Origin: a virus
Direction: 5' to 3' (one strand)
DNA: 64,000 nucleotides
Virus record (IMG/VR): IMGVR_UViG_3300045044_000056
Span: 11,262 to 75,261 of that record
This document shows, one piece after another, positions 1 through 50,872 of the stretch (positions within the stretch are counted from its first letter, which is position 1; each line of letters starts with the position of its first letter). The notes beneath the pieces were generated by a model. It did not search any database. It saw only the letters and a list, made by a program, of their open reading frames with translations, and had not been told where the DNA came from. The translations under genes and the position numbers were made by a program.

Positions 1-310
1 TCACCTGGTTCTGCGTGAACCCCTGGATGGTGATGTGGTCAAGATTAGTATGGAAGTTGGTCCAGGTATCATGCCCGTCGTTGGCTGCCAGCACCAAGTT
101 GATCGAGCCCGCGCCGTTGTTGACGATGGTGTCATTGGCGGGGCCGGAGTTGATCTGGCCGTTAGTGGTGACGCCAGCCTTGACCAGTACGTTGTGATCA
201 AAGTTGGCGGTTTCGTCTACCAGGTAGTCGCGCCCATTGAGCGCATGCGCCATGATCGTAATGCTGGACTGCGGATGCTTGCCGATGTCGGACCATACTG
301 CCGTTGACAT
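1..310 (-). CDS. RTX/serralysin-type Ca-binding-repeat-like protein, 5' part only (runs off window start)
   Basis: Not in the ORF track; read by hand from ATG at 310 with AAGGGA upstream: MSTAVWSDIGKHPQSS...GPANDTIVNNGAGS...DGHDTWTNFHTNLDHITIQG. The last segment resembles the GxDTIxDFxxGxDxIDL motif. Confidence 0.5.
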   Translation of the reverse strand, partial: MSTAVWSDIGKHPQSSITIMAHALNGRDYLVDETANFDHNVLVKAGVTTNGQINSGPANDTIVNNGAGSINLVLAANDGHDTWTNFHTNLDHITIQGFTQNQV

Positions 311-354
311 GGTAGTCTTCCCTTGTGCCCCAAGGGTTACCCCATCATTGCTGT

Positions 355-795
355 TTAGCCGTGGAAAACGCTGTCGTTCTTGTGCGGCTGCGCCTTGCTG
401 GCCCAATCCTGCACGGCAGGCTGCAGTTTCTTGATCCAGGCATAGGCCTGCGTCAGCGGGATGTTCTGCCGGTCCTTGAGCCACAGCGCCAAGGCCAGTG
501 GACTGGGACCGAGCCCGGTCAGGTCGTGCAGCAGCACCTGCGCGCTGCCGCTCCACACCCCCATGATCAGGCGCTCGATCTGCGTCAGGTTGGTCTGATT
601 GACGAAGCCGTCGGCGTTGAGCAGCGGCAGCCAATGGCAGCGCTTGTCGTCGGTGTGCGACCGGGCATCGCAGTTGATGCATAGAAACTGAATGCTGTTG
701 CGCGCGCTGTTGCAGCTCGCATTGGTGCCCAGCCATAACCGTGGCACGATCTGCTCCGCGCCGATCAGAGATCCGGGAACCGGAACGGCCATCAA
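355..795 (-). CDS. Dual-specificity phosphatase-fold protein with degenerate active site
   Basis: QIVPRLWLG N-terminal motif; VLLHDLTGLGPSPLALALWL aligns to VLVHCxxGxxRS; C-terminal AYAWIKKLQP helix. Confidence 0.65.
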   Translation of the reverse strand: MMAVPVPGSLIGAEQIVPRLWLGTNASCNSARNSIQFLCINCDARSHTDDKRCHWLPLLNADGFVNQTNLTQIERLIMGVWSGSAQVLLHDLTGLGPSPLALALWLKDRQNIPLTQAYAWIKKLQPAVQDWASKAQPHKNDSVFHG

Positions 796-807
796 GTCAC
801 CCTTGTT

Positions 808-1901
808 TTACGAGCCACGATAGTCGAGAGTTCCAAAAACCCGGAGCGAGCCACGCCGGATGAGAGCACCATGCTTAAGGAGCGAGCCATAATCGCTGAG
901 AGCACCAAGCCTTAGGAGCGAGCCAATCCTGCGGAGAGCACCAAGAACGATGAGCGAGCCACTCGGCCTGAGAGCGCCACAAGAACGGAGCGAGCCACAG
1001 CCTGCGAGGGCACCATAAAGTGAGAGCGAGCCATGAGCTGTGAGAGCACCAAAGTACGGGAGCGAGCCAACCCGGGAGAGAGCACCAAGAACTGCGAGCG
1101 AGCCATTGTCTTGGAGAGTACCAAAAGTCAGGAGCGAGCCATAAGCCTGGAGAGCACCATCGGCGAGGAGCGAGCCATCGCGGAATGAGAGCACCATGCA
1201 GAGCGAGCGAGCCCATAAATCGGTGAGAGCACCAAACCCGACGAGCGAGCCAGTCCGCGCGAGAGCACCAATGCGGAAGAGCGAGCCATTGATTTGAGAG
1301 AGCACCATATCCGGTGAGCGAGCCACCGCGCATGAGAGCACCAGAAGCGTGGAGCGAGCCAGCTCGGAGGAGAGCACCAAAAACCGGGAGCGAGCCCAAT
1401 GTAATGAGAGCGCCACAAGTGAGGAGCGAGCCATTGTTTGAGAGAGCACCACGTGAAGAGAGCGAGCCAATCGTGCGGAGAGCACCAAAAAGGACGAGCG
1501 AGCCAATGCCTGAGAGAGCACCATAAGGGGCGAGCGAGCCATTGTGTTGGAGAGCACCAAGCGTGTGGAGCGAGCCATTGATGCAGAGAGCACCACGATC
1601 CCAGAGCGAGCCCTTAGGTCGGAGAGCACCAGAGAGCATGAGCGAGCCATCAGCCGAGAGAGCACCATAAGTGATGAGCGAGCCATACTACTAGAGAGCA
1701 CCAGAACCACGGAGCGAGCCAACTTCGGAGAGAGCACCAGATCAGCTGAGCGAGCCAAGGTGAACGAGAGCACCAAAGAAGCTGAGCGAGCCAATTTGAC
1801 AGAGAGCACCAAACCGTCAGAGCGAGCCAAAAGGCTTGAGAGCACCAGCATTGGAGAGCGAGCCAAAAGCAGCGAGAGCACCAAAACTCAAGAGCGCCCT
1901 G
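808..1901 (+). ncRNA. TIGR-like dual-repeat guide array 1 (29 full 36-nt units plus a degenerate leader unit)
   Basis: GAGCGAGCCA and GAGAGCACCA alternate, separated by 8-nt variable spacers, from 844 to 1891 (29x36+4 nt; three small indels near 1180, 1215 and 1295). Degenerate unit at 808-843; terminal partial repeat at 1892. Confidence 0.88.
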
Positions 1902-1905
1902 AACA

Positions 1906-2688
1906 ATGATCTCCTACTCGCATAACTTCGAAGACGTCATCCTGGCCCGCGCGCTCGGCTCGATCACCCACGGCTTCTACATCGACGTCGGCGCCGCAAC
2001 CCCCATCCACTCCTCAAACACCTACGCCTTCTATGAGCACGGCTGGTGGGGCCTCGTCGTCGACCCGCTGTTCCGCCTGTGGCCGCAGTACCGCGCCGAG
2101 TGGGAACGTACCCGCCCGCGCGACCTCCTCGCCGCCGTCGCCGCCGGTAAAGAAACTGGCCACACCGAGTTCTGGGTCGCCGGCCATATGCAGTGCTCTA
2201 CCGCCTCGCCCGAAACCCTCGCCTACTTCCGCAAGCTCGGCTCCCAGATCCCCGACCACGGAACCATCGTCAACGTCTACAGCCTCACCACCATCCTCGA
2301 CGCCACCGCAACCTCAGTCGCAGCCGCAGGCGGCCCCATCCACCTCCTCACCGTCGATGTCGAAGGCATGGAGCTCGACGTCGTCCAAGGCCTCGATCTC
2401 TCCCGCTACCGCCCCTGGATCATCCTCGCCGAAGTCACCAAGCCCGGCACCATCGAGCTGGCACCCCACGCCGCCCCGCTCTACCAGTACCTCTGCGACA
2501 AGGATTACGTCCGCGTCCTGTTCGACGGCACCAACGAGTTCTACCTCGATATCGAGCACATCGAGCTGGCGAAACACTTCAAGCTCCCACTCAACTGCCA
2601 CGACAACTTCAAGCTCTACCGCGAAGTGCTGCTCGAAAACCGCATCAAAGAACTGGAAGAAATCACCAACCCAGCCTTCGGACGATGA
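1906..2688 (+). CDS. FkbM-family SAM-dependent methyltransferase
   Basis: YSHNFED, FYIDVGA, SNTYAFYEHGWWGLVVDP and LLTVDVEGMELDVVQG motifs. Confidence 0.9.
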   Translation: MISYSHNFEDVILARALGSITHGFYIDVGAATPIHSSNTYAFYEHGWWGLVVDPLFRLWPQYRAEWERTRPRDLLAAVAAGKETGHTEFWVAGHMQCSTASPETLAYFRKLGSQIPDHGTIVNVYSLTTILDATATSVAAAGGPIHLLTVDVEGMELDVVQGLDLSRYRPWIILAEVTKPGTIELAPHAAPLYQYLCDKDYVRVLFDGTNEFYLDIEHIELAKHFKLPLNCHDNFKLYREVLLENRIKELEEITNPAFGR

Positions 2689-2909
2689 ACATGGACCGCG
2701 AAACAATCCAGACGTTGCTTGATCTGCTCAACCCGTTGCATGATGAGCTTGATCGGCAAACATATGATGAGAAGGTGCACGAGAACTTCGATGCTCCCCG
2801 CGACCGTGAGTACGAGGTCACGATCACGGAAGCGCATGAGCGCGATCTAACTCAAGCTGTCCTGATCCTAGAAGATCGTCTGCGACAGGCGAGGGCTACG
2901 AGTTCATAG
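2685..2909 (+). CDS. Hypothetical protein (74 aa)
   Basis: ATGA overlap with the FkbM stop; MNMDRETIQTLLDLL... is the plausible part of track ORF 2193-2909. Confidence 0.6.
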   Translation: MNMDRETIQTLLDLLNPLHDELDRQTYDEKVHENFDAPRDREYEVTITEAHERDLTQAVLILEDRLRQARATSS

Positions 2910-3198
2910 AGGCATAAAGGCCCGTGGACATTGATAGAACAGGAGTGGGCGATCCATGGGTGGGCTCCTTTAATTTTGAGCGAGCCGGTTGACTACTAGA
3001 ATAGCCACGATCAGCGCGACCATAACCGCCGCCTTCCATGCGCTGTCCCACGCCACCCGACGCGGCACACCCTGATAGCCGTAGGCAACGGCGTAGCGTT
3101 GCAGACCGGCAAGCGCGGCGATTGCTGCGATCCAGAACATTCAGGCCCTCTTTTATGCCGCGCGGCTACTTCTCCTTTGGGCTGAGCGTCCCCCCCCT

Positions 3199-3795
3199 TC
3201 ACGCCGCCAGCGCCCGCCGCACCGACGCAACACTCACCCCAAACCGCTCCGCTACCCCGCGCAACCCAACACCCCCAGCCCCATACGCCGCCCTGATCTC
3301 TAACGCCTTCGCCGCCCCAATCTCAACAGGCCGACCAATCGCCTTCCCAGATCGCGTCCCCTTCTCCCGCGCCCGCGCCATCCCCGCATTCACTCGCTCC
3401 CGGATGATCTCCCGCTCAAACTCCGCAAATACACCCAACATCTGAAACATCGCTCGCCCTGCCGGCGTCGTCGTGTCCAACCCCTGCTGGTGTAAATACA
3501 GCCCAGTCCTCGTCGCCCGTAAGTGCAACAAAAACGTCGTCAGATCCTGCAAACTCCGACCCAGCCGGTCCACCGACCACGCCATCACCAAATCAAACTT
3601 CCCCCGGCTCGCATCCTTGTGCAGCCGGTCAAACCCAGGCCGCCGCTCGCGACCCTTCGCCCCACTGATCCCAAGATCCTCATAAACCCCAACCACCTCG
3701 TGCCCCAGCCGCGCCGCAACCGCCCGCAGCTCCCGCTCCTGGTTCTCCGTCGTCTGATCCTTCGTGCTCACCCGCAAATACAGTACCGCGCGCAT
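3199..3795 (-). CDS. Serine recombinase (resolvase/invertase family) with C-terminal HTH
   Basis: YLRVST (catalytic Ser), ISGAKGRERRPGF, SVDRLGRS, FAEFEREIIRER. Confidence 0.95.
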   Translation of the reverse strand: MRAVLYLRVSTKDQTTENQERELRAVAARLGHEVVGVYEDLGISGAKGRERRPGFDRLHKDASRGKFDLVMAWSVDRLGRSLQDLTTFLLHLRATRTGLYLHQQGLDTTTPAGRAMFQMLGVFAEFEREIIRERVNAGMARAREKGTRSGKAIGRPVEIGAAKALEIRAAYGAGGVGLRGVAERFGVSVASVRRALAA

Positions 3796-3966
3796 ACCCT
3801 ACCTCCTCCAAATATGGGACCCATTGGCGTATTAGGGTACCGTTTCGCCAGAAGGTCCAACCATGGTTCCAGGAGGGCCCCGAGCGCGCGGCCGACTGGG
3901 GCCCCTGGAAACCTACCGTTTTGGGAATGAACATTGCTCCGCGCACCCTCCAATATGGGCGCGCGC

Positions 3967-4102
3967 TGTGCCAAATGGAAGTCCTTTTGTCACAGGTTAT
4001 TAGAGGCCGATAACTTGTTTATTTTCAAGGGGCTTATAACCGAATTTCAGGGAGGGTTTTGGCACACTTATAATATACCAGAATACCGATAACTAGTTAT
4101 CC
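3967..4102. promoter_or_regulatory. Candidate res site upstream of the resolvase
   Basis: AT-rich. Inverted TGTGCCAAA (3967-3975) and TTTGGCACA (4058-4066); TTATAA at 4034 and 4068; perfect palindrome GATAACTAGTTATC near 4088-4101. Confidence 0.45.
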
Positions 4103-4545
4103 TGACCATCCTCAGATACGACAGCATCTATGACTAATGCAGCTTCGCTATCTGGTAGGCGCGTACCTTTGAAGTCGAGGCGGAATATCTCGGCGCTCGG
4201 CGGCAGCCCGTGCTTGATCAGGTCCTGGTCCAGCTCGGCGACAGACGTGTAGTTGATCTCGGCCCGCGTGATATGCGCATCGATCGCCTTGGGCGTGATC
4301 ATGCCAAGCATGGTGACGCCGTTCCTGATGTCCTTGCGGATAGCGGCCAGCACGAAGCCGACCATTCCATTTTTGCCCTTGCCGTTTTCGCCATATGCGC
4401 AGAGGCCTTCGATGATGGCCTCGCGTGACATGCGGGTTGCGTAGTTTGGTTTGTCCTTGGGGCGACCTGGTCCGCCTTTGCCGCCTTTGACGAAGCCGTG
4501 GCGCTGTTTTCGATATTCTTTTCCGGCGAGCGCGCTGTTGGACAT
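4093..4545 (-). CDS. Probable terminase small subunit
   Basis: N-terminal HGFVKGGKGGPGRPKDKPN motif typical of phage TerS-like proteins; size and strand fit the late operon. Confidence 0.6.
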   Translation of the reverse strand: MSNSALAGKEYRKQRHGFVKGGKGGPGRPKDKPNYATRMSREAIIEGLCAYGENGKGKNGMVGFVLAAIRKDIRNGVTMLGMITPKAIDAHITRAEINYTSVAELDQDLIKHGLPPSAEIFRLDFKGTRLPDSEAALVIDAVVSEDGQDN

Positions 4546-4730
4546 TTTGTTACATTATACGATTTTACCGCTCTTGATGTGTGGTGCTCTCAAAGGCAGT
4601 GGCTCAAAACGAAAAAACGCCCGGGCTGAATTCCAGGCGTTCTTAACCTTCCGGCCGCTTTTTGATGTGCGTGTGAGGCTAGCCAAAATTTTTTGGCGCG
4701 CAAGAGCTTTTCGCACAACCTGGGAAGTTT

Positions 4731-4948
4731 TGCCCCCAGCTGGGCCTCGGGCGCGGCGTCCAGTTAACGGACTGCGCAGCGCCCCCAGTTGCGCGTCAGC
4801 AGGCAATCTGGGGGCGCGTTGCCCCCAGTAATATTGCCCCCAGTTTTTCTTGGGCTACGCCCAAAAAACTGAGGGCAACTGGGGCCGCGCCCTCGCGAGG
4901 TGGGGGCAGCTTCCCCCAGTTTCCCCCAGTTCGCAAATTACTGGGGGC
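4731..4948. repeat. Cluster of CCCC(C)AG(T) iterons in both orientations (origin or packaging-site candidate)
   Basis: At least nine copies (direct at about 4733, 4782, 4822, 4837, 4913, 4923; inverted at about 4808, 4878, 4940), followed by ACACATTATTATATAG. Confidence 0.7.
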
Positions 4949-5065
4949 GACACATTATTATATAGAGCCGGGCTCATTTCGGCTGTTGGTTGGCACAACT
5001 TTTTCGCAGTGCATGCAAACTTTTTACGTGCACTTGACAGAAATTGTGGTCAAAGCGGTTTGCGC

Positions 5066-5368
5066 ATGACCTGGAAGATGCGATTGCCCGAGGAGGAGAT
5101 CGGCGAGATCGTGGGGTGGCACGGTCAGTGGTGTTTACGAGATCGAGGGTTCAAGCCGGAGGGGCAGCCGTGGCGGCGACTGTATTTGCTTGCGCCGGAG
5201 GAGAAGCACTTGCCTAAAGAGAAGCGTAGCAAGCGGCGGAAGCTGGCCTATCATTTTGCGTGGAATGGCGAGCGGCTAAGTCGCAACAGTGATGCTGTGC
5301 AGCTTTTGAAGAATTATCCGGCGGTCCATGCCGCGGTGTTTGAGATGTGTAAGAAGGCATTTAACTGA
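5066..5368 (+). CDS. Hypothetical protein (100 aa)
   Basis: C-terminal part of track ORF 4850-5368 from MTWKMRLPEEE; the stop codon overlaps the first repeat of array 2. Confidence 0.6.
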   Translation: MTWKMRLPEEEIGEIVGWHGQWCLRDRGFKPEGQPWRRLYLLAPEEKHLPKEKRSKRRKLAYHFAWNGERLSRNSDAVQLLKNYPAVHAAVFEMCKKAFN

Positions 5369-5592
5369 GCCAGGAGCGCCGAGAGCACCAGAAGGTCATG
5401 AGCGAGCCACCCCAGTTGAGAGCACCAGGCAATGGGAGCGAGCCACGCCCTACGAGAGCACCAAAGTATATGAGCGAGCCACGCCGGATGAGAGCACCAT
5501 GCTTAAGGAGCGAGCCAGAAACCGGGAGAGCACCAAGCCTTAGGAGCGAGCCACGTCAGTTGAGAGCACCATAAATCGGGAGCGGAGCGAGC
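5363..5592 (+). ncRNA. TIGR-like dual-repeat guide array 2 (about 6 units)
   Basis: Same two repeats: GAGAGCACCA at 5381, 5418, 5454, 5490, 5526, 5562; GAGCGAGCCA at 5400, 5436, 5472, 5508, 5544. Confidence 0.88.
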
Positions 5593-5651
5593 TTAGGCCC
5601 TCTTGCAATTCTCAAGTAATTATTGATAGGCTATTCAAGTAAGCCTTTAAT

Positions 5652-6668
5652 TTGCACGGCTGGGGACTTGGCGTCGCGGTTTTGCGCATGGCCAGGGCAA
5701 GGCGCCAACTGGTTAGCATTGCTGACCCGATTGCATTGGGCCGTGGGTTTGCGGCTGCCGGCGGGCGCTTGGCCACGGAAGGTTTTGAGATCGCCGCACG
5801 GCTGCATGCGGATCTGCGCGAGCAATGGACGACGAAGCCAGTTGGGTTGGGGGTTGCAGAGGCCTTGGCTGGCATGGTTCGGCCGAAGCCGATCCGGGAG
5901 AACTTGGTTAGCTTAGCGATCGAGGCCGAGCGTGTGGGCCGGCTGGCGGTTGCCGGGCTGATGCTGGCGGAGCTGCGGATCTCGTTTGGGCGGGATGCCG
6001 ACTGGAGAGCGTTTGCAGGCCAGCATCTTCCATTTGGGTTGGAGCGTGCTGAGCATCTGATTGGCGCGGTGGTGCACCGCAATTCGATGGCGTACTGTGC
6101 CAAGTGCAAGGCCGGCGTCCGCTGTGAGTGCTCCTGTGGCGTGCCCTATATCCCCGAGGTGCCGTGGGAGCGTGAGCCTGCAGCTCTGCCGGAGCCGGTG
6201 CATTCAAGTTCGGCTTTAGAGCGGGCGCTGGCGGCGATTAAAGCTGAGCCCGGCAAGTCTAACCGGCTGATCGCGAAGGAAATTGGGGTAGCTGACGATA
6301 CCGTTAGGCGTGCTCGCAAAAAATATGAGGCCGATCGCGCACCTGATCGCGCACCTGTACGCGTTGGTGCTGACGGCAAGTCCTATCATCTACCCACGCA
6401 CAGCCAAAGGCACCGAAAGGCACCGCCGCCTGATGATGGCAGCCTAGCGAATGAATTGGTGATTGCGCCGCTGGTGAAGTTCGCGACCGCCTACGTCAAC
6501 ACCATCAATGAATTTGATGACCGCAAGCTGCGCACCGACTTCACGCGCGAGGATCGGGATGCGATCGCGGATACATTTTACTCGATCATGAATGACCTGG
6601 GTTTGCTCGCCCAGCGTTTCAACGACGTCACCCTTGAGCAACATCAGAATGGAGGAATACACCAATGA
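5652..6668 (+). CDS. DNA-binding protein (DUF3102-like segment, Cys cluster, HTH); start uncertain, may be 6087
   Basis: AGLMLAELR...DWRAFAGQHLPFGLERAEHLI; CAKC...CECSC; SNRLIAKEIGVADDTVRRARK HTH; GADGKSY. Confidence 0.6.
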   Translation: MHGWGLGVAVLRMARARRQLVSIADPIALGRGFAAAGGRLATEGFEIAARLHADLREQWTTKPVGLGVAEALAGMVRPKPIRENLVSLAIEAERVGRLAVAGLMLAELRISFGRDADWRAFAGQHLPFGLERAEHLIGAVVHRNSMAYCAKCKAGVRCECSCGVPYIPEVPWEREPAALPEPVHSSSALERALAAIKAEPGKSNRLIAKEIGVADDTVRRARKKYEADRAPDRAPVRVGADGKSYHLPTHSQRHRKAPPPDDGSLANELVIAPLVKFATAYVNTINEFDDRKLRTDFTREDRDAIADTFYSIMNDLGLLAQRFNDVTLEQHQNGGIHQ

Positions 6669-11243: not shown

Positions 11244-11483
11244 CTACCTGACACCCTGATTTTGGGAAAAATTTTTTTGTTGCTCGACGTCCTCATCCTT
11301 GCCTGGGAATTTCAAAGCTGTCCGCACCGCCCCCACCGCCTCGGCAACGCGCGCTGAGTTGACATCAAACATGTCGGCAAGCACCTGCAGGGCAACGCCG
11401 CGGATCAAATAGAAGTATGCGACCTTGAGTTTTTCCTCGGGTGTCAGCGAGGTTTTGCGTTCATAGCCGCGCGCTTCAGTCAT
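11244..11483 (-). CDS. Small HTH protein
   Basis: VALQVLADMFDVNSARVAEAV. Confidence 0.6.
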   Translation of the reverse strand: MTEARGYERKTSLTPEEKLKVAYFYLIRGVALQVLADMFDVNSARVAEAVGAVRTALKFPGKDEDVEQQKNFSQNQGVR

Positions 11484-44391: not shown

Positions 44392-47300
44392 TTACATCGG
44401 TCCCGTGTCCGCTAGGGTTTCGTGCGCCTCGCGCCGCGACGCCTGCTTATGCTGGTTCCACTGGCGGGCGCGCGCGAAGGTGTGGCGCGCGGGCGCCACC
44501 TTCGGCATCTCCGCTTCCACGCTCATCTTGACCGGCTTCTCCAACGCCGAGCGCAGCTGCTGGTGCTGGTCATGAATGTGATCAAAAGTGCCCTCGATGC
44601 GCTCCTGCGGCGAACCGGCTGCCGCGCCCGGGAACCGTCGTCGAACGGCGGCTGCTGGCGTATCGCCTTCGCCACCAACCCGACTGATGCCGCGCGCAGC
44701 ACCTAATCCTGGTCCAGCAACCCGTCCGCCTTCCGGCCAAGCCTGGGTCGGAGCGCGCGCGGTTTGTGTCGCGCCGCCACCGCCCCCGCGTTGTTCTTCA
44801 ACTAATTTAGCCCATTCACCTGATTGCCGCATTTCCCGAATGCGGTTAACAACGCGCGATCCTTCGGTTGCTTCCCGATGGCCTGGATTAACTTCGCCGT
44901 GACCATAAATTGGGATGTCAGGGTAATTTTTAGCTATGAACCTGGCAGCACTATCAACCTGCGCGTCAGTAAGGTCACGATCATCTTTTGCTATGATCTC
45001 CATGCCAAGAATGTTTGGATTAGTAATTCCCTGCCGCTGAAATTCCCGCGGCGTGTGGGCTTGGCTGATATGGCTTGTGCCGCCATAACCAAACTCGCTC
45101 CTTACATCGTGGATATTGCCTTCGCGATCCATAATGTACTGCGTACCAACGCCAGGACGACTGCGTTGCCAATCAGCCACGACACCACCCGGAGTGCCAC
45201 GACCGGCGGTATGGTGCATGATGAAAGCCAGCGGATCGCGACCTGATGGCGCTGACATCGCACCGGGCGACGTTCCGCTGGGCGCACCGGTGACTTGACT
45301 CGGCGTGATGCTAGGCGTGAGTGGGCCACCGGCACTTGGCGGCGCACCTCCTGCGGCGCCGGCTACCCCTCCAGCCCAATCCATCCATTTCGCGATGTCT
45401 GGCGCGCGGCCATGCCAACCGGGACCATAGCGCATCGAACCGAAATAAGCGCCTGCACCACCCCAACCGCTGTAGGTCCCCGGCCCGCGCCCAGGTTCTG
45501 AGATCGCACCGAACTGTGGAATGTACTTGGCCCATTGGTTATAAGCCGCCTGCATCTGCGCAGCGGGGTCAGTTACTGCACCACGCACACCATAGTTGGC
45601 CAAATCGCGTGGCCCCATCTGGAACAGGCCACCACCAGCAGCACCGGGCTGCAGCGAACTTTCCTGCTGCGCCGTCGCCAGGAACAACCGCGCCCACTCT
45701 TCGGGTGCGCCAGTAGTAATGCCCCAACGCGCCGCGTCGCGCGGGATGAACCCGTGCAGCGGACCACCGCGAAACATCTCGGTGGCACGTTGGAAAAATG
45801 CCGTAGGATCGAGCCCACCCCGGCCGCCCTGGCGTTGAGCAACTCCCGCTCCAACTCGACCGCCAGTCGGGAATGGCCAGGCCGCTCCTGGCGCGCCAGC
45901 CTGACTTTCGAGTCCGCCCGCTCTCCAATCTCCAGTCTCGCCACCGGTCTTGGCCCACGCTGGGGCCATTTCGGGGAACGGCACGGGCGGCGCACCGACG
46001 GGACCGCCGCCACCGGTTGTCTGCTGGCCACCAGCGCCGGTGCCGCGCGGCCCGGCGCGGCCCATACCCGCGGCATAGGCTTGCATGCCGCCGCCCGGGC
46101 CGGGTGCGCCGAACGTGCCACGGCCGCCCTGCGCCTCGATGTATTTCTGCAGCTCCTCGTCCGACATCTGTCCGAAGTCGGTCGGCATGCGCTTTTGCTC
46201 GCCCATAGCCAGCGCGTGGATGCGGGTCCACATCTGCGCGGCTTCGGTCTCCTGCCGCTCCTGCGCGGTGCGCGCCTTGCCCAGTGGCACGACAGCCTCG
46301 GGGCCGCCTTCGCCGACCATTGCCAGTGTCGGCTGATCGACGACGCCGCCTTCCTGCATGAACGGGATATTTAAGGGTACGGGCTTGGTGCCTTGCGGCG
46401 TTGGCTTCATCGCCTCCCCGATAGCCCTATTTAGCGCACCGGCAGCTTGACCCATCAAATCAGGGTGCTCAGGCGTGCCATGTCCGCCGAACAGAAGCTC
46501 AGGAAGTTTTGAGTAGTCGGCCTCGGTGATGGCCTTGATTGCCTTGGCGATCCGTTCCAGTTCGTTGGCGAGATTGGTCAGCGCTTCGCTGGCTCCCAGC
46601 CGTTCCAACAACAGGCCGACGCTGTTCTGCAGGATATCCCACGCCGCCGACAGTTTGCGCAATGCTCCGCCACCTTCCAGCTCCAATGCCAAATGTCTAT
46701 CCTTCAAATCGTTGGCGTCATGCACAGCCTGCTGATAGTACCTGCGACTCTCTTGGCTGACTTTAGATTGTATATCAACGAACCGGCGCGCCGACTCGCT
46801 GGGCAGCATGTCACGCCAAGCCGCTTCGAACCCCACTCGGTCATTGCCGAACTCGCGCAGCAGGTCTTTGCGCTTGTTATTAAGCGAGTCCATCAAATCG
46901 AGGAAATCGCCGTGCCCGGCCCGCATGGCCTCGATGTCGCCCTGCATCAGGAACCCGATCTTGGACCGCGGGTCGCTGATGTCCCTCAGTATTTCCTGCA
47001 GGCCACGCGCCGCCTGCATCGGCGATCCCAACGCGGTTGCCGTCTCCTTGAACACCGCACTGAGTTGGCCGGCGGCTTCGACGCCGTGCAATCCGATGCG
47101 GTCCATATCCGCCATCATGCGCGGCGCCACGGTCGCAAACTCGTTGCCGATGCCGTCGAGGGTTGTAGACCATACCCCCATCAATTTCGGTATCTCTTCG
47201 AGCTTGACGCCCAGGTCTTTCATCGCTGCGGTAGTTAGACGAGTGGCACTGTTGACTGACGTCTCGGTCAGGTCAGCGAACTGCTGCATCGGCTCGAATA

Positions 47301-48982: not shown

Positions 48983-50872
48983 TTAAGCGGCGACGTTGAG
49001 CTGCTGCTCGAGCTGGGCCACCATCTGGTCAATGGCGGGCTTGTAGCGCGCGCTCATGGTGGTGATCAGTTTGAGCACCGGCGGCTCTTCGGCGACGAAC
49101 CCGACGGTCAGGTGACCGAGCCGGATCTCGTTGGCGGAGTTGAGCGCACCGCGGAACGTGGCGTGACCATCGATGATCTGCTCACGTGCTTTCAGCACGC
49201 CGAGGAAGTCGTTGATGGTGGTGATGACATTGTGCACCGTCTGCCGATCGATGTTGGCTCGACCGAGGTAGGTGCGCAGCGCCGGCATCAAGCTCAGGTG
49301 GATGTAGTCACGCCCGCGCTTGACGTTGATCATTTGCCACAAGGGATCGTCGCCGACGTTGTCGAGGGTGATCGAGATGAAGCCGCCCGAGGAGATGGCG
49401 GACTCGATACCGATCAGACCACGGGCGATGATGCCGATGTTGGCCGCCAGCAGCTGCTGCCCTTCGGTGGCTGGGTCAGTCAGGTTGAAGTTGACGGTGC
49501 GGGCCGGGCCGACAATGCCCTGAATGGGCTGGTTGGCCCACGAGTGGAACGGCGCCCCAGTAGCGAAGTCGCGCGCCACCGCCAGCCCGATCTCACGCGG
49601 CGCCCGCGGCACCACGATGATGTTGCTGGAGACCGGGTCCATGATCTTGACGCCGCCCGAGACCGCGATCAGCCGCTGGTGGTTCATGGTGGTGCGCCAG
49701 TTCTCGTCAGCGATCTGGCTAATACCGGCCGACTCCACGACGGCGACGCCGATCAGGTTGTCGAGCACTGCCGGCAACGCTGCGCACACCGGGTTGGCGC
49801 CGAGCGCCATGGTGGCAGTCATCGTGCACTGGGTCGCCGCGATGGCGTCGCGACCGCCGGTCAGGGTCGGGCCAGACAGCGACAGGCCGGTCACGGTGGT
49901 GCCGAGGGTGAACGAGTTGCCGGAGGCGCCCGCGGTGTCGTCTACGATGTTGATGGTGCCCGTTACCAGCGTGTAGGTGCACTTGCTGATCTGGGTGTCG
50001 GCGGTCGAGTTCAGGAACGTCACTAGGCTGTTGAGGGTGGCTGACAGATTGGCGCCGATCTGGACTTGGTTACCCACCGGGGTGCCCGATACGAAGGTGA
50101 CGGTGCTGCCATTGAGGTTGATGGTGGCCCCGATGCCCGGCTGCTGATTGAAAATCATCGAGCCGGACGCGGCCAGCGCCGTGATGGGCGGACCATCGGG
50201 CGGCGGCACGGTCACCAACGGCGCCACCGTCATCCAGGCGCCCCAACTGTCGATGGTGATATCCTGGTTGTGGATCGAGCCGTCGGCCTCGGCCACCACA
50301 TGCGCTACCGGCTGGATCAGATTGGCGCCGTTAGTCTCGCCACCGCCCGGGGCGAACGTCAACTGATACATGGCGCCCGGCTTATAACCCTGCCCGACCG
50401 TGTTGACGTTGAGCGTGTTGAGGCTGTTGGCCTGCTGCCCGGTATAACCAGGTGCACAGATTAGCCGCGGCGTGCAGTACAGCATGTTTGGCGCCTTGGT
50501 GAACGCCCACACTCCGGTCTGCAGGATCGAGTTGCCCATCACCTTCGAGATGGTCTGCTGCAGTTTCAGGTTGGCATTGGCGTCGGTGCCGTAGTCGGTG
50601 CGAACGATCACAATCTGCGCTGCGACCTGGAAGTCGGCGAGCTGCGCGTTGATGCCGTTGATGGCGTCGGGGATGTAGCCGTCGGTCCCCAGCGCGGTCA
50701 GCTTATCAACGTCGTTGCTGTAGACCAGCACCGGCGTGTTGAGCGGATAGATCGTGGCATCAGCCGTCGAGCACGGCCCGATGATGCCGATCACATCCAT
50801 GTTGGCGCCCAGGACGGGTTTGGCCTGGTCATCAACCTGGATAAACTGTAAGCCGAAATATGGCTGAGACAT
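48983..50872 (-). CDS. Tail sheath protein (P2 FI-like)
   Basis: VIGIIG.C..AD...PLNTPV; PRLICAPGYT; HSWANQPIQGI; INVKRGRD; EEPPVL..IT. Confidence 0.9.
   Translation of the reverse strand: MSQPYFGLQFIQVDDQAKPVLGANMDVIGIIGPCSTADATIYPLNTPVLVYSNDVDKLTALGTDGYIPDAINGINAQLADFQVAAQIVIVRTDYGTDANANLKLQQTISKVMGNSILQTGVWAFTKAPNMLYCTPRLICAPGYTGQQANSLNTLNVNTVGQGYKPGAMYQLTFAPGGGETNGANLIQPVAHVVAEADGSIHNQDITIDSWGAWMTVAPLVTVPPPDGPPITALAASGSMIFNQQPGIGATINLNGSTVTFVSGTPVGNQVQIGANLSATLNSLVTFLNSTADTQISKCTYTLVTGTINIVDDTAGASGNSFTLGTTVTGLSLSGPTLTGGRDAIAATQCTMTATMALGANPVCAALPAVLDNLIGVAVVESAGISQIADENWRTTMNHQRLIAVSGGVKIMDPVSSNIIVVPRAPREIGLAVARDFATGAPFHSWANQPIQGIVGPARTVNFNLTDPATEGQQLLAANIGIIARGLIGIESAISSGGFISITLDNVGDDPLWQMINVKRGRDYIHLSLMPALRTYLGRANIDRQTVHNVITTINDFLGVLKAREQIIDGHATFRGALNSANEIRLGHLTVGFVAEEPPVLKLITTMSARYKPAIDQMVAQLEQQLNVAA

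Follow-up and report, generated by a model that had tools for sequence, protein, structure and literature searches.

The stretch of DNA analysed here (the window; 64,000 nucleotides, positions 11,262 to 75,261 of the IMG/VR virus record IMGVR_UViG_3300045044_000056) carries three TIGR arrays and one tas gene, and on its sequence features this locus is confirmed as a dual-repeat TIGR-Tas system of the TasA subtype: a Nop domain, alternating repeats and truncated array ends were all found, and no nuclease was. The best explanation, which we hold at roughly even confidence, is that a nuclease-free TasA with about 43 tigRNAs is aimed at variable non-self DNA and that its guide repertoire is renewed in place. 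In this model, the three arrays would give rise to about 43 different 36-nt tigRNAs (their expression and processing are predicted), which would be loaded onto the single TasA. Each ribonucleoprotein would then bind a 16-18-bp site composed of spacer A, a gap of 0-2 nt, and the reverse complement of spacer B, and the bound TasA would block transcription or replication without cutting, by analogy with other TasA proteins, which published work describes as RNA-guided repressors. Since the phage's own genome lacks such sites, the repertoire is expected to be aimed at non-self DNA; the likeliest targets would be fast-changing sequences that are missing from searchable collections, for instance rival mobile elements or host regions that vary (e.g., defence islands). 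Renewal would occur within the arrays, not at one end, whereby single 8-nt spacers are swapped between units or arrays, the 10-nt repeats serve as homology, and units duplicate and then diverge.

The TIGR-TasA cassette and its phage

The viral genome is 85,183 bp long, is known from soil metagenomes only, and is 92% complete by CheckV. It has the gene set of a temperate myovirus-like phage, including a sheath, a tape-measure protein, a baseplate, a tyrosine integrase, and RecT. The features on which the analysis rests are as follows (coordinates are those of the window).

812-1896, plus strand: array 1, 30 units (parsed by script)
5367-5584, plus strand: array 2, 6 units with the same repeats, beginning on the TGA stop codon of the open reading frame at 4850-5368
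19182-20297: tyrosine integrase
23608-23309, minus strand: array 3, 8 units with the same repeats, beginning on the TAG stop codon of tasA
23607-24464, minus strand: tasA, 285 aa (268 aa from a later start), Nop/IS110-RBD-like, the only Tas gene in the genome

Array 1 consists of a truncated edge repeat (812-817), one degenerate unit, 29 regular units (844-1891), and a second truncated edge repeat (1892-1896). Within the array, the order of elements is GAGCGAGCCA, spacer A, GAGAGCACCA, and spacer B, with a period of 36 nt; the spacers are 8 nt long, except for three A spacers of 9, 10, and 9 nt. The copy at the start (GAGCCA) is truncated at its 5' side and the one at the end (GAGCG) at its 3' side, and arrays 2 and 3 have the same end layout. 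According to a published rule, TIGR arrays start and finish with truncated edge repeats; because truncated copies of GAGCGAGCCA stand at the array ends, GAGCGAGCCA was assigned as the edge repeat and GAGAGCACCA as the loop repeat. On the plus strand both repeats terminate in CCA (box C), and therefore the plus strand is the RNA-like strand of array 1. At the 5' side, both repeats start with GAG instead of UG (box D), and a matching change in both repeats is permitted by the covariation rule for box C and box D (Faure et al. 2025, PMC12045711). Altogether, the three arrays hold 44 units and 43 distinct A/B pairs, as one unit of array 2 (CGCCGGAT/TGCTTAAG) is an exact copy of unit 1 of array 1. 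No fourth array was found in the 85,183-bp genome.

Several additional features of the arrays were observed. Array 3 contains an internal truncated edge repeat at 23349-23379 on the minus strand (GAGCG, aagcgct, then a full edge repeat) and, judged by this layout, looks like two fused arrays, a one-unit array joined to a seven-unit array; its variant loop repeat GAGAGTTCCA also occurs in the first unit of array 1. Arrays 2 and 3 start on the stop codon of the preceding gene, whereas array 1 does not. A divergent gene lies only 19 nt upstream of array 1, so the promoter of this array must overlap that gene, and at its other end (1892-1909) the array runs directly into a gene for an FkbM-type methyltransferase with its start codon at 1906. 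No terminator-like site was found downstream of array 1, and scans of the array surroundings gave no informative promoter or terminator signal. Among the soil contigs mapped over 300-6000, array 1 was identical in one run (896-3145) and its interior was uncovered in the other runs; two short-sided joints are not trustworthy, and this mapping gives no measure of array variation in the phage. At 3356-3546, within the gene for a small serine recombinase (3199-3795), soil-contig depth spikes about eightfold and loose ends are numerous; this segment is a conserved resolvase piece common to many other organisms in these soils.

TasA matched PF02371 in Pfam (E 1.2e-6) and PHROG 4285 (E 1e-43, profile positions 13-273 of 277), and among solved structures it aligned with TasR (9mty, E 1.9e-9) and TasH (21kl, E 4.9e-8) over the Nop part only. 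About 70 residues precede the Nop alignment in TasA, compared to about 150 in TasR. A search of Pfam and PHROGs revealed no nuclease family in TasA or in the genes beside the arrays. Given that about 70 residues are too few for a RuvC or HNH domain and that no nuclease family was detected, the protein was assigned as the nuclease-free TasA. It has more than 3,900 homologues at E<=1e-20, and the locus belongs to an already known kind, TIGR-TasA.

Metagenome contigs of about 80-90 kb carry many relatives of the tail sheath (48983-50872), at 60-77% identity, which suggests a sizeable family of soil phages of about the same genome size. The nearest named sheath relative is in a Bradyrhizobium paxllaeri prophage or chromosome (52% identity). 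No related sequence was found among GenBank phages by megablast or tblastn, and the tail sheath was absent from 401 sampled genomes of the phylum to which one carrier metagenome-assembled genome (MAG) belongs. For TasA, the nearest named relatives are in a Xanthobacteraceae MAG (68%) and Paraburkholderia sp. BR10936 (62%), and the closest match overall is on an 83-kb contig (69% identity). As hints to the host, these sheath and TasA relatives are too weak for one to be named.

The exact repeat pair GAGCGAGCCA-N8-GAGAGCACCA was found in 98 IMG/VR stretches and 18 MAG contigs (loci L002-L117). Of the 18 MAG contigs, ten carry the label Acidobacteriota, and two are contigs of 256 kb and 284 kb from Alphaproteobacteria MAGs. 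What the related loci have in common with the phage is limited to the arrays and tasA (nucleotide identity about 68-72%); the cassette therefore moves between unrelated soil phages and prophages. A cassette also lies on a contig of the Paraburkholderia sp. BR10936 isolate (L139 9590-9970, JBFRCM010000034.1), the TasA of which is 62% identical to the phage TasA; its small upstream arrays share the edge repeat of the phage and have GAGTGTACCA, a variant, as their loop repeat, and the neighbouring genes encode RecT, an integrase, ParA, and tail proteins.

Searches for guide targets

Two statements on the cut side in Faure et al. 2025 disagree, and the target geometry was taken from the published TaTasR oligonucleotides. 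TaTasR tigRNA1 reads AGCCA-UGCAAGCCC-UGAAACCCA-UUGCCUUAG-UGCG, in which UGCAAGCCC is spacer A and UUGCCUUAG is spacer B, and its target strand reads TGCAAGCCC-CTAAGGCAA (Faure et al. 2025, PMC12045711). Comparison of the two shows that a site is made up of spacer A and, after it on the same strand, the reverse complement of spacer B; gaps of 0-2 nt between the half-sites are tolerated (Faure et al. 2025, PMC12045711). The preliminary description had stated that, with no PAM required, spacers A and B each pair with a different strand of a single short site, which is right and agrees with the published Tas papers. The remaining three A/B arrangements were used as control geometries, and the scrambled control comprised all A_i/B_j pairs, scaled to 43.

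We searched 83.5 kb of the phage's own genome, with the arrays masked, for the 43 pairs at gaps of 0-2 nt. The numbers of sites with 0/1/2/3 mismatches were 0/0/2/90, compared to 0.02/0.33/6.1/83 for the scrambled control, and thus no enrichment was detected. The true geometry did no better than the wrong ones (0/2/4/68, 0/0/6/82, and 0/0/6/82) or than register-shifted pairs of B_i with A_i+1 (0/0/8/73). The best two-mismatch self-sites lie at 46748 of the window and at genome position 9282, which is upstream of the window. Both opposite-strand arrangements lacked an exact self-site when the gap was varied between -3 and +30. Restricting the search to the low-GC, promoter-like quarter gave 0/0/2/23/198 sites with up to four mismatches (expected, 0/0.14/1.3/20/186). 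The preliminary description had also proposed that a nuclease-free TasA could target the phage's own promoters, host genes, or rival phages, and had named a lack of excess over scrambled pairs as grounds for refutation, which is the outcome in the phage's own genome; with no paired matches at 0-1 mismatch, and with 2-3-mismatch counts like those of the scrambled pairs and wrong geometries, self-targeting by matched or near-matched sites is not supported in this 92%-complete genome, of which up to 8% may be missing. Two candidate signals from this search were discarded. Two one-mismatch matches to the reverse complement of A followed by B were dropped once the oligonucleotides had fixed the geometry, as theirs is the wrong one, and an apparent depletion of two-mismatch self-sites (2 versus 6.1 expected) was not upheld when each related locus was searched for its own guides (14 versus 16.8).

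Targets in hosts and rival elements were sought in surrogates only (related phage loci, one carrier MAG, and IMG/VR with five guides), and none of these surrogates showed enrichment. From the cassette family, 1,252 units were parsed, giving 803 unique 8/8 pairs. When these pairs were pooled and searched against 951 kb of related phage DNA, we found 2 exact and 71 one-mismatch sites, five scrambles gave 1-3 exact and 47-63 one-mismatch sites, and the other geometries were similar. The cis test covered 84 loci (991 units, 647 kb), with the guides of each locus compared to the flanks of that locus, and yielded 0/1/14/212 sites versus 0.1/1.3/16.8/201 expected.

The carrier MAG, G001 (5.8 Mb), has a related cassette on a 256-kb contig, and its TasA is 62% identical to the phage TasA. 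In 338 kb of G001, its own 11 parsed guides had 0/0/3/100 sites (0/0.5/7.4/97.5 for the control), and the phage's 43 pairs had 0/0/20/357 (scrambled, 0.1/1.4/29/375). Nine guides of the G001 cassette had no exact site in the whole 5.8-Mb MAG nor in four other carrier MAGs, in a search that passed a variable-gap positive control. The self-guide result is a weak negative from 11 guides and one MAG, and it concerns the guides of G001, not those of the phage.

In IMG/VR, guide 1.1, which is duplicated in arrays 1 and 2, had 21 exact matches, compared to 19 for a control geometry, and both sets lie in unrelated contexts. Four more guides had 52, at least 116, 15, and 28 matches, which fell to 29, about 50, 13, and 25 after homologous contexts were merged; these matches are in unrelated, mostly low-GC phages. 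No contig was matched by two of the five guides. The other 38 guides, searched in 2.23 Mb around the IMG/VR matches, gave 0/2/154 sites (controls, 0/6/144 and 0/4/142). A target for guide 3.5, suggested by its at least 116 matches, was rejected, as the roughly 50 unrelated low-GC contexts point to base composition and family size. After these searches, the statement in the preliminary description that the targets of the guides are unknown is still correct.

Spacer turnover and composition

Spacers change several-fold faster than repeats or flanks in related loci, and none of the phage's own pairs recurs in any other contig. In one pair of loci (L006 and L088), the flanks (5,195 nt) and the repeats (370 nt) are both identical (1.000), and a single B spacer has been replaced (AAGTAGAG to TGGACACG) within about 5.8 kb of otherwise identical sequence. 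The replacing spacer, TGGACACG, matches another B spacer in the same array at 7 of 8 positions, and both stand behind the same variant loop repeat. By its sequence, this pair is a clean example of what appears to be single-spacer conversion. Between L069 and L089, the identity is 0.976 for the flanks, 0.981 for the repeats, and 0.827 for the spacers, plus inserted units; the shared, mutated, replaced, and inserted units are interleaved and not piled at one end. The flank divergence in this pair is about 0.024 at all three codon positions, with the open reading frame calls uncertain in GC-rich DNA. For a more distant pair, L035 and L076, the values are 0.93, 0.927, and 0.53, respectively. Units compared between loci fall into two classes, identical (263 cross-locus pairs) and unrelated, and intermediates are few.

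This fast turnover, including a swap between otherwise identical phages, argues against conserved self or housekeeping targets. Guides directed against the phage's own conserved promoters, or against conserved host genes, would be expected to change no faster than their targets; the spacers change and the repeats are kept, which favours variable non-self DNA.

Four spacers of the phage are present in two copies each, where 0.07 would be expected; the copies are paired differently and can even switch between the A and the B position. Four more spacer pairs are one base apart (1.4 expected). The spacer changes seen here have the appearance of internal recombination and duplication and not of foreign DNA being captured, and no adaptation genes for TIGR-Tas are known in the primary papers (PMC12045711; bioRxiv 10.64898/2026.09.09.750476). 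We tentatively propose, at well under even confidence, that guides diversify without acquisition machinery, whereby short-patch spacer replacement between units, arrays, and perhaps co-infecting phages would combine with unit duplication and mutation, under diversifying selection from rival elements or host defence loci. If this is true, the guides would form a combinatorial, germline-like repertoire, exchanged half-spacer by half-spacer, and not a CRISPR-like memory.

The composition of the spacers also sets them apart from the genomes that carry them. Their GC content is 0.50 (A) and 0.48 (B), with near-equal base use, versus 0.60-0.61 in the carrying phages; the spacers are thus neither a random sample of phage DNA nor the product of free drift at genome composition. 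Across all parsed arrays, the B spacers are purine-rich, most strongly at position 2 (A 0.39, C 0.15), whereas the A spacers are balanced. Such an asymmetry would not be expected from random-orientation sampling of double-stranded DNA.

Alternative explanations, known systems, and significance

Three other accounts of the guides were considered. The phage may regulate itself through imperfect pairing, binding its own promoters or origins with at least three mismatches or with one spacer fully paired, so that match counts would not reveal it. TaTasR has been reported to nick an E. coli site that pairs fully (9/9) with spacer B but at just 6/9 positions with spacer A, and about 90 three-mismatch sites exist in the phage genome; however, the counts at 2-4 mismatches equal those of the scrambled controls both genome-wide and in low-GC DNA, mismatches in the seed abolish activity in vitro (Faure et al. 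2025, PMC12045711), and guides of related phages that change several-fold faster than the genome are not what a regulator co-evolving with its own operators would produce. We consider this account improbable. In a second account, guides that match the host chromosome would silence conserved genes of the host while the phage infects it or is lysogenic; the phage is temperate (tyrosine integrase at 19182-20297), and a reprogrammed TasA can repress the chromosomal gene cysG in published work. This explanation also seems quite unlikely, given that guides are not conserved among phages with the same cassette, that the nine guides from a related cassette lacked an exact site in the 5.8-Mb carrier MAG and in four others, and that the phage's 43 pairs were not enriched in 338 kb of MAG G001.

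A third account, to which we give a modest chance, holds that the guides have no specific natural targets: most units would be products of shuffling and duplication, and the arrays would be retained either as a store of diversity or as by-products, with only an occasional guide of use. Half-spacers are indeed shuffled, both among arrays and from one position (A or B) to the other, the spacer changes trace to paralogous units, targets were found in none of the data sets searched, and the primary papers know of no adaptation machinery. However, the repeats are conserved like the coding flanks and the spacers have about 50% GC in 60% GC genomes, which points to selection on guides as guides, and the cassette is widespread and its arrays are long.

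The closest known systems are the dual-repeat TIGR-TasA systems of FpTasA (Flavonifractor plautii) and MbTasA (PMC12045711; bioRxiv 10.64898/2026.09.09.750476), which have the same phage-carried, nuclease-free Nop protein and the same 36-nt dual-repeat, dual-spacer unit with truncated edge repeats at both ends. The phage differs from them in having three dispersed arrays per tasA, the largest of which is 22 kb away, and spacers of 8 nt instead of 9 nt. SpTIGR-TasH of Salicola phage CGphi29 (PDB 9W04, 21kl) is likewise phage-encoded, with the same 8+8-nt spacers, 10-nt repeats, and 36-nt unit, and its Nop domain can be aligned with that of TasA (E 4.9e-8); however, TasH cuts DNA via an N-terminal HNH nuclease, for which the phage TasA has no room. 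TaTIGR-TasR (9mty) is the best solved relative (E 1.9e-9), and its edge repeat, UGCGAGCCA, is nearly that of the phage, (G)AGCGAGCCA, but TaTasR is archaeal and has a RuvC nuclease domain and 9-nt spacers. [quoted passage not shown] The proteins are unrelated, however, and CRISPR arrays have single long spacers acquired at one end by Cas1-Cas2, whereas TIGR spacers are changed in situ and acquisition genes are not known.

The natural targets of TIGR-Tas are an open question in both primary papers (PMC12045711; bioRxiv 10.64898/2026.09.09.750476). The phage provides a clean case, with a 92%-complete genome, 43 pairs, and a validated geometry, in which self-regulation by matched sites can be set aside. 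The abundance of the cassette in soil phages supplies material for experiments, and the BR10936 isolate is a possible culturable model. For the TIGR-Tas family, the combination of conserved repeats and fast-changing spacers narrows the search to variable, non-self targets, and the pattern of turnover is a first hint of how the arrays renew themselves.
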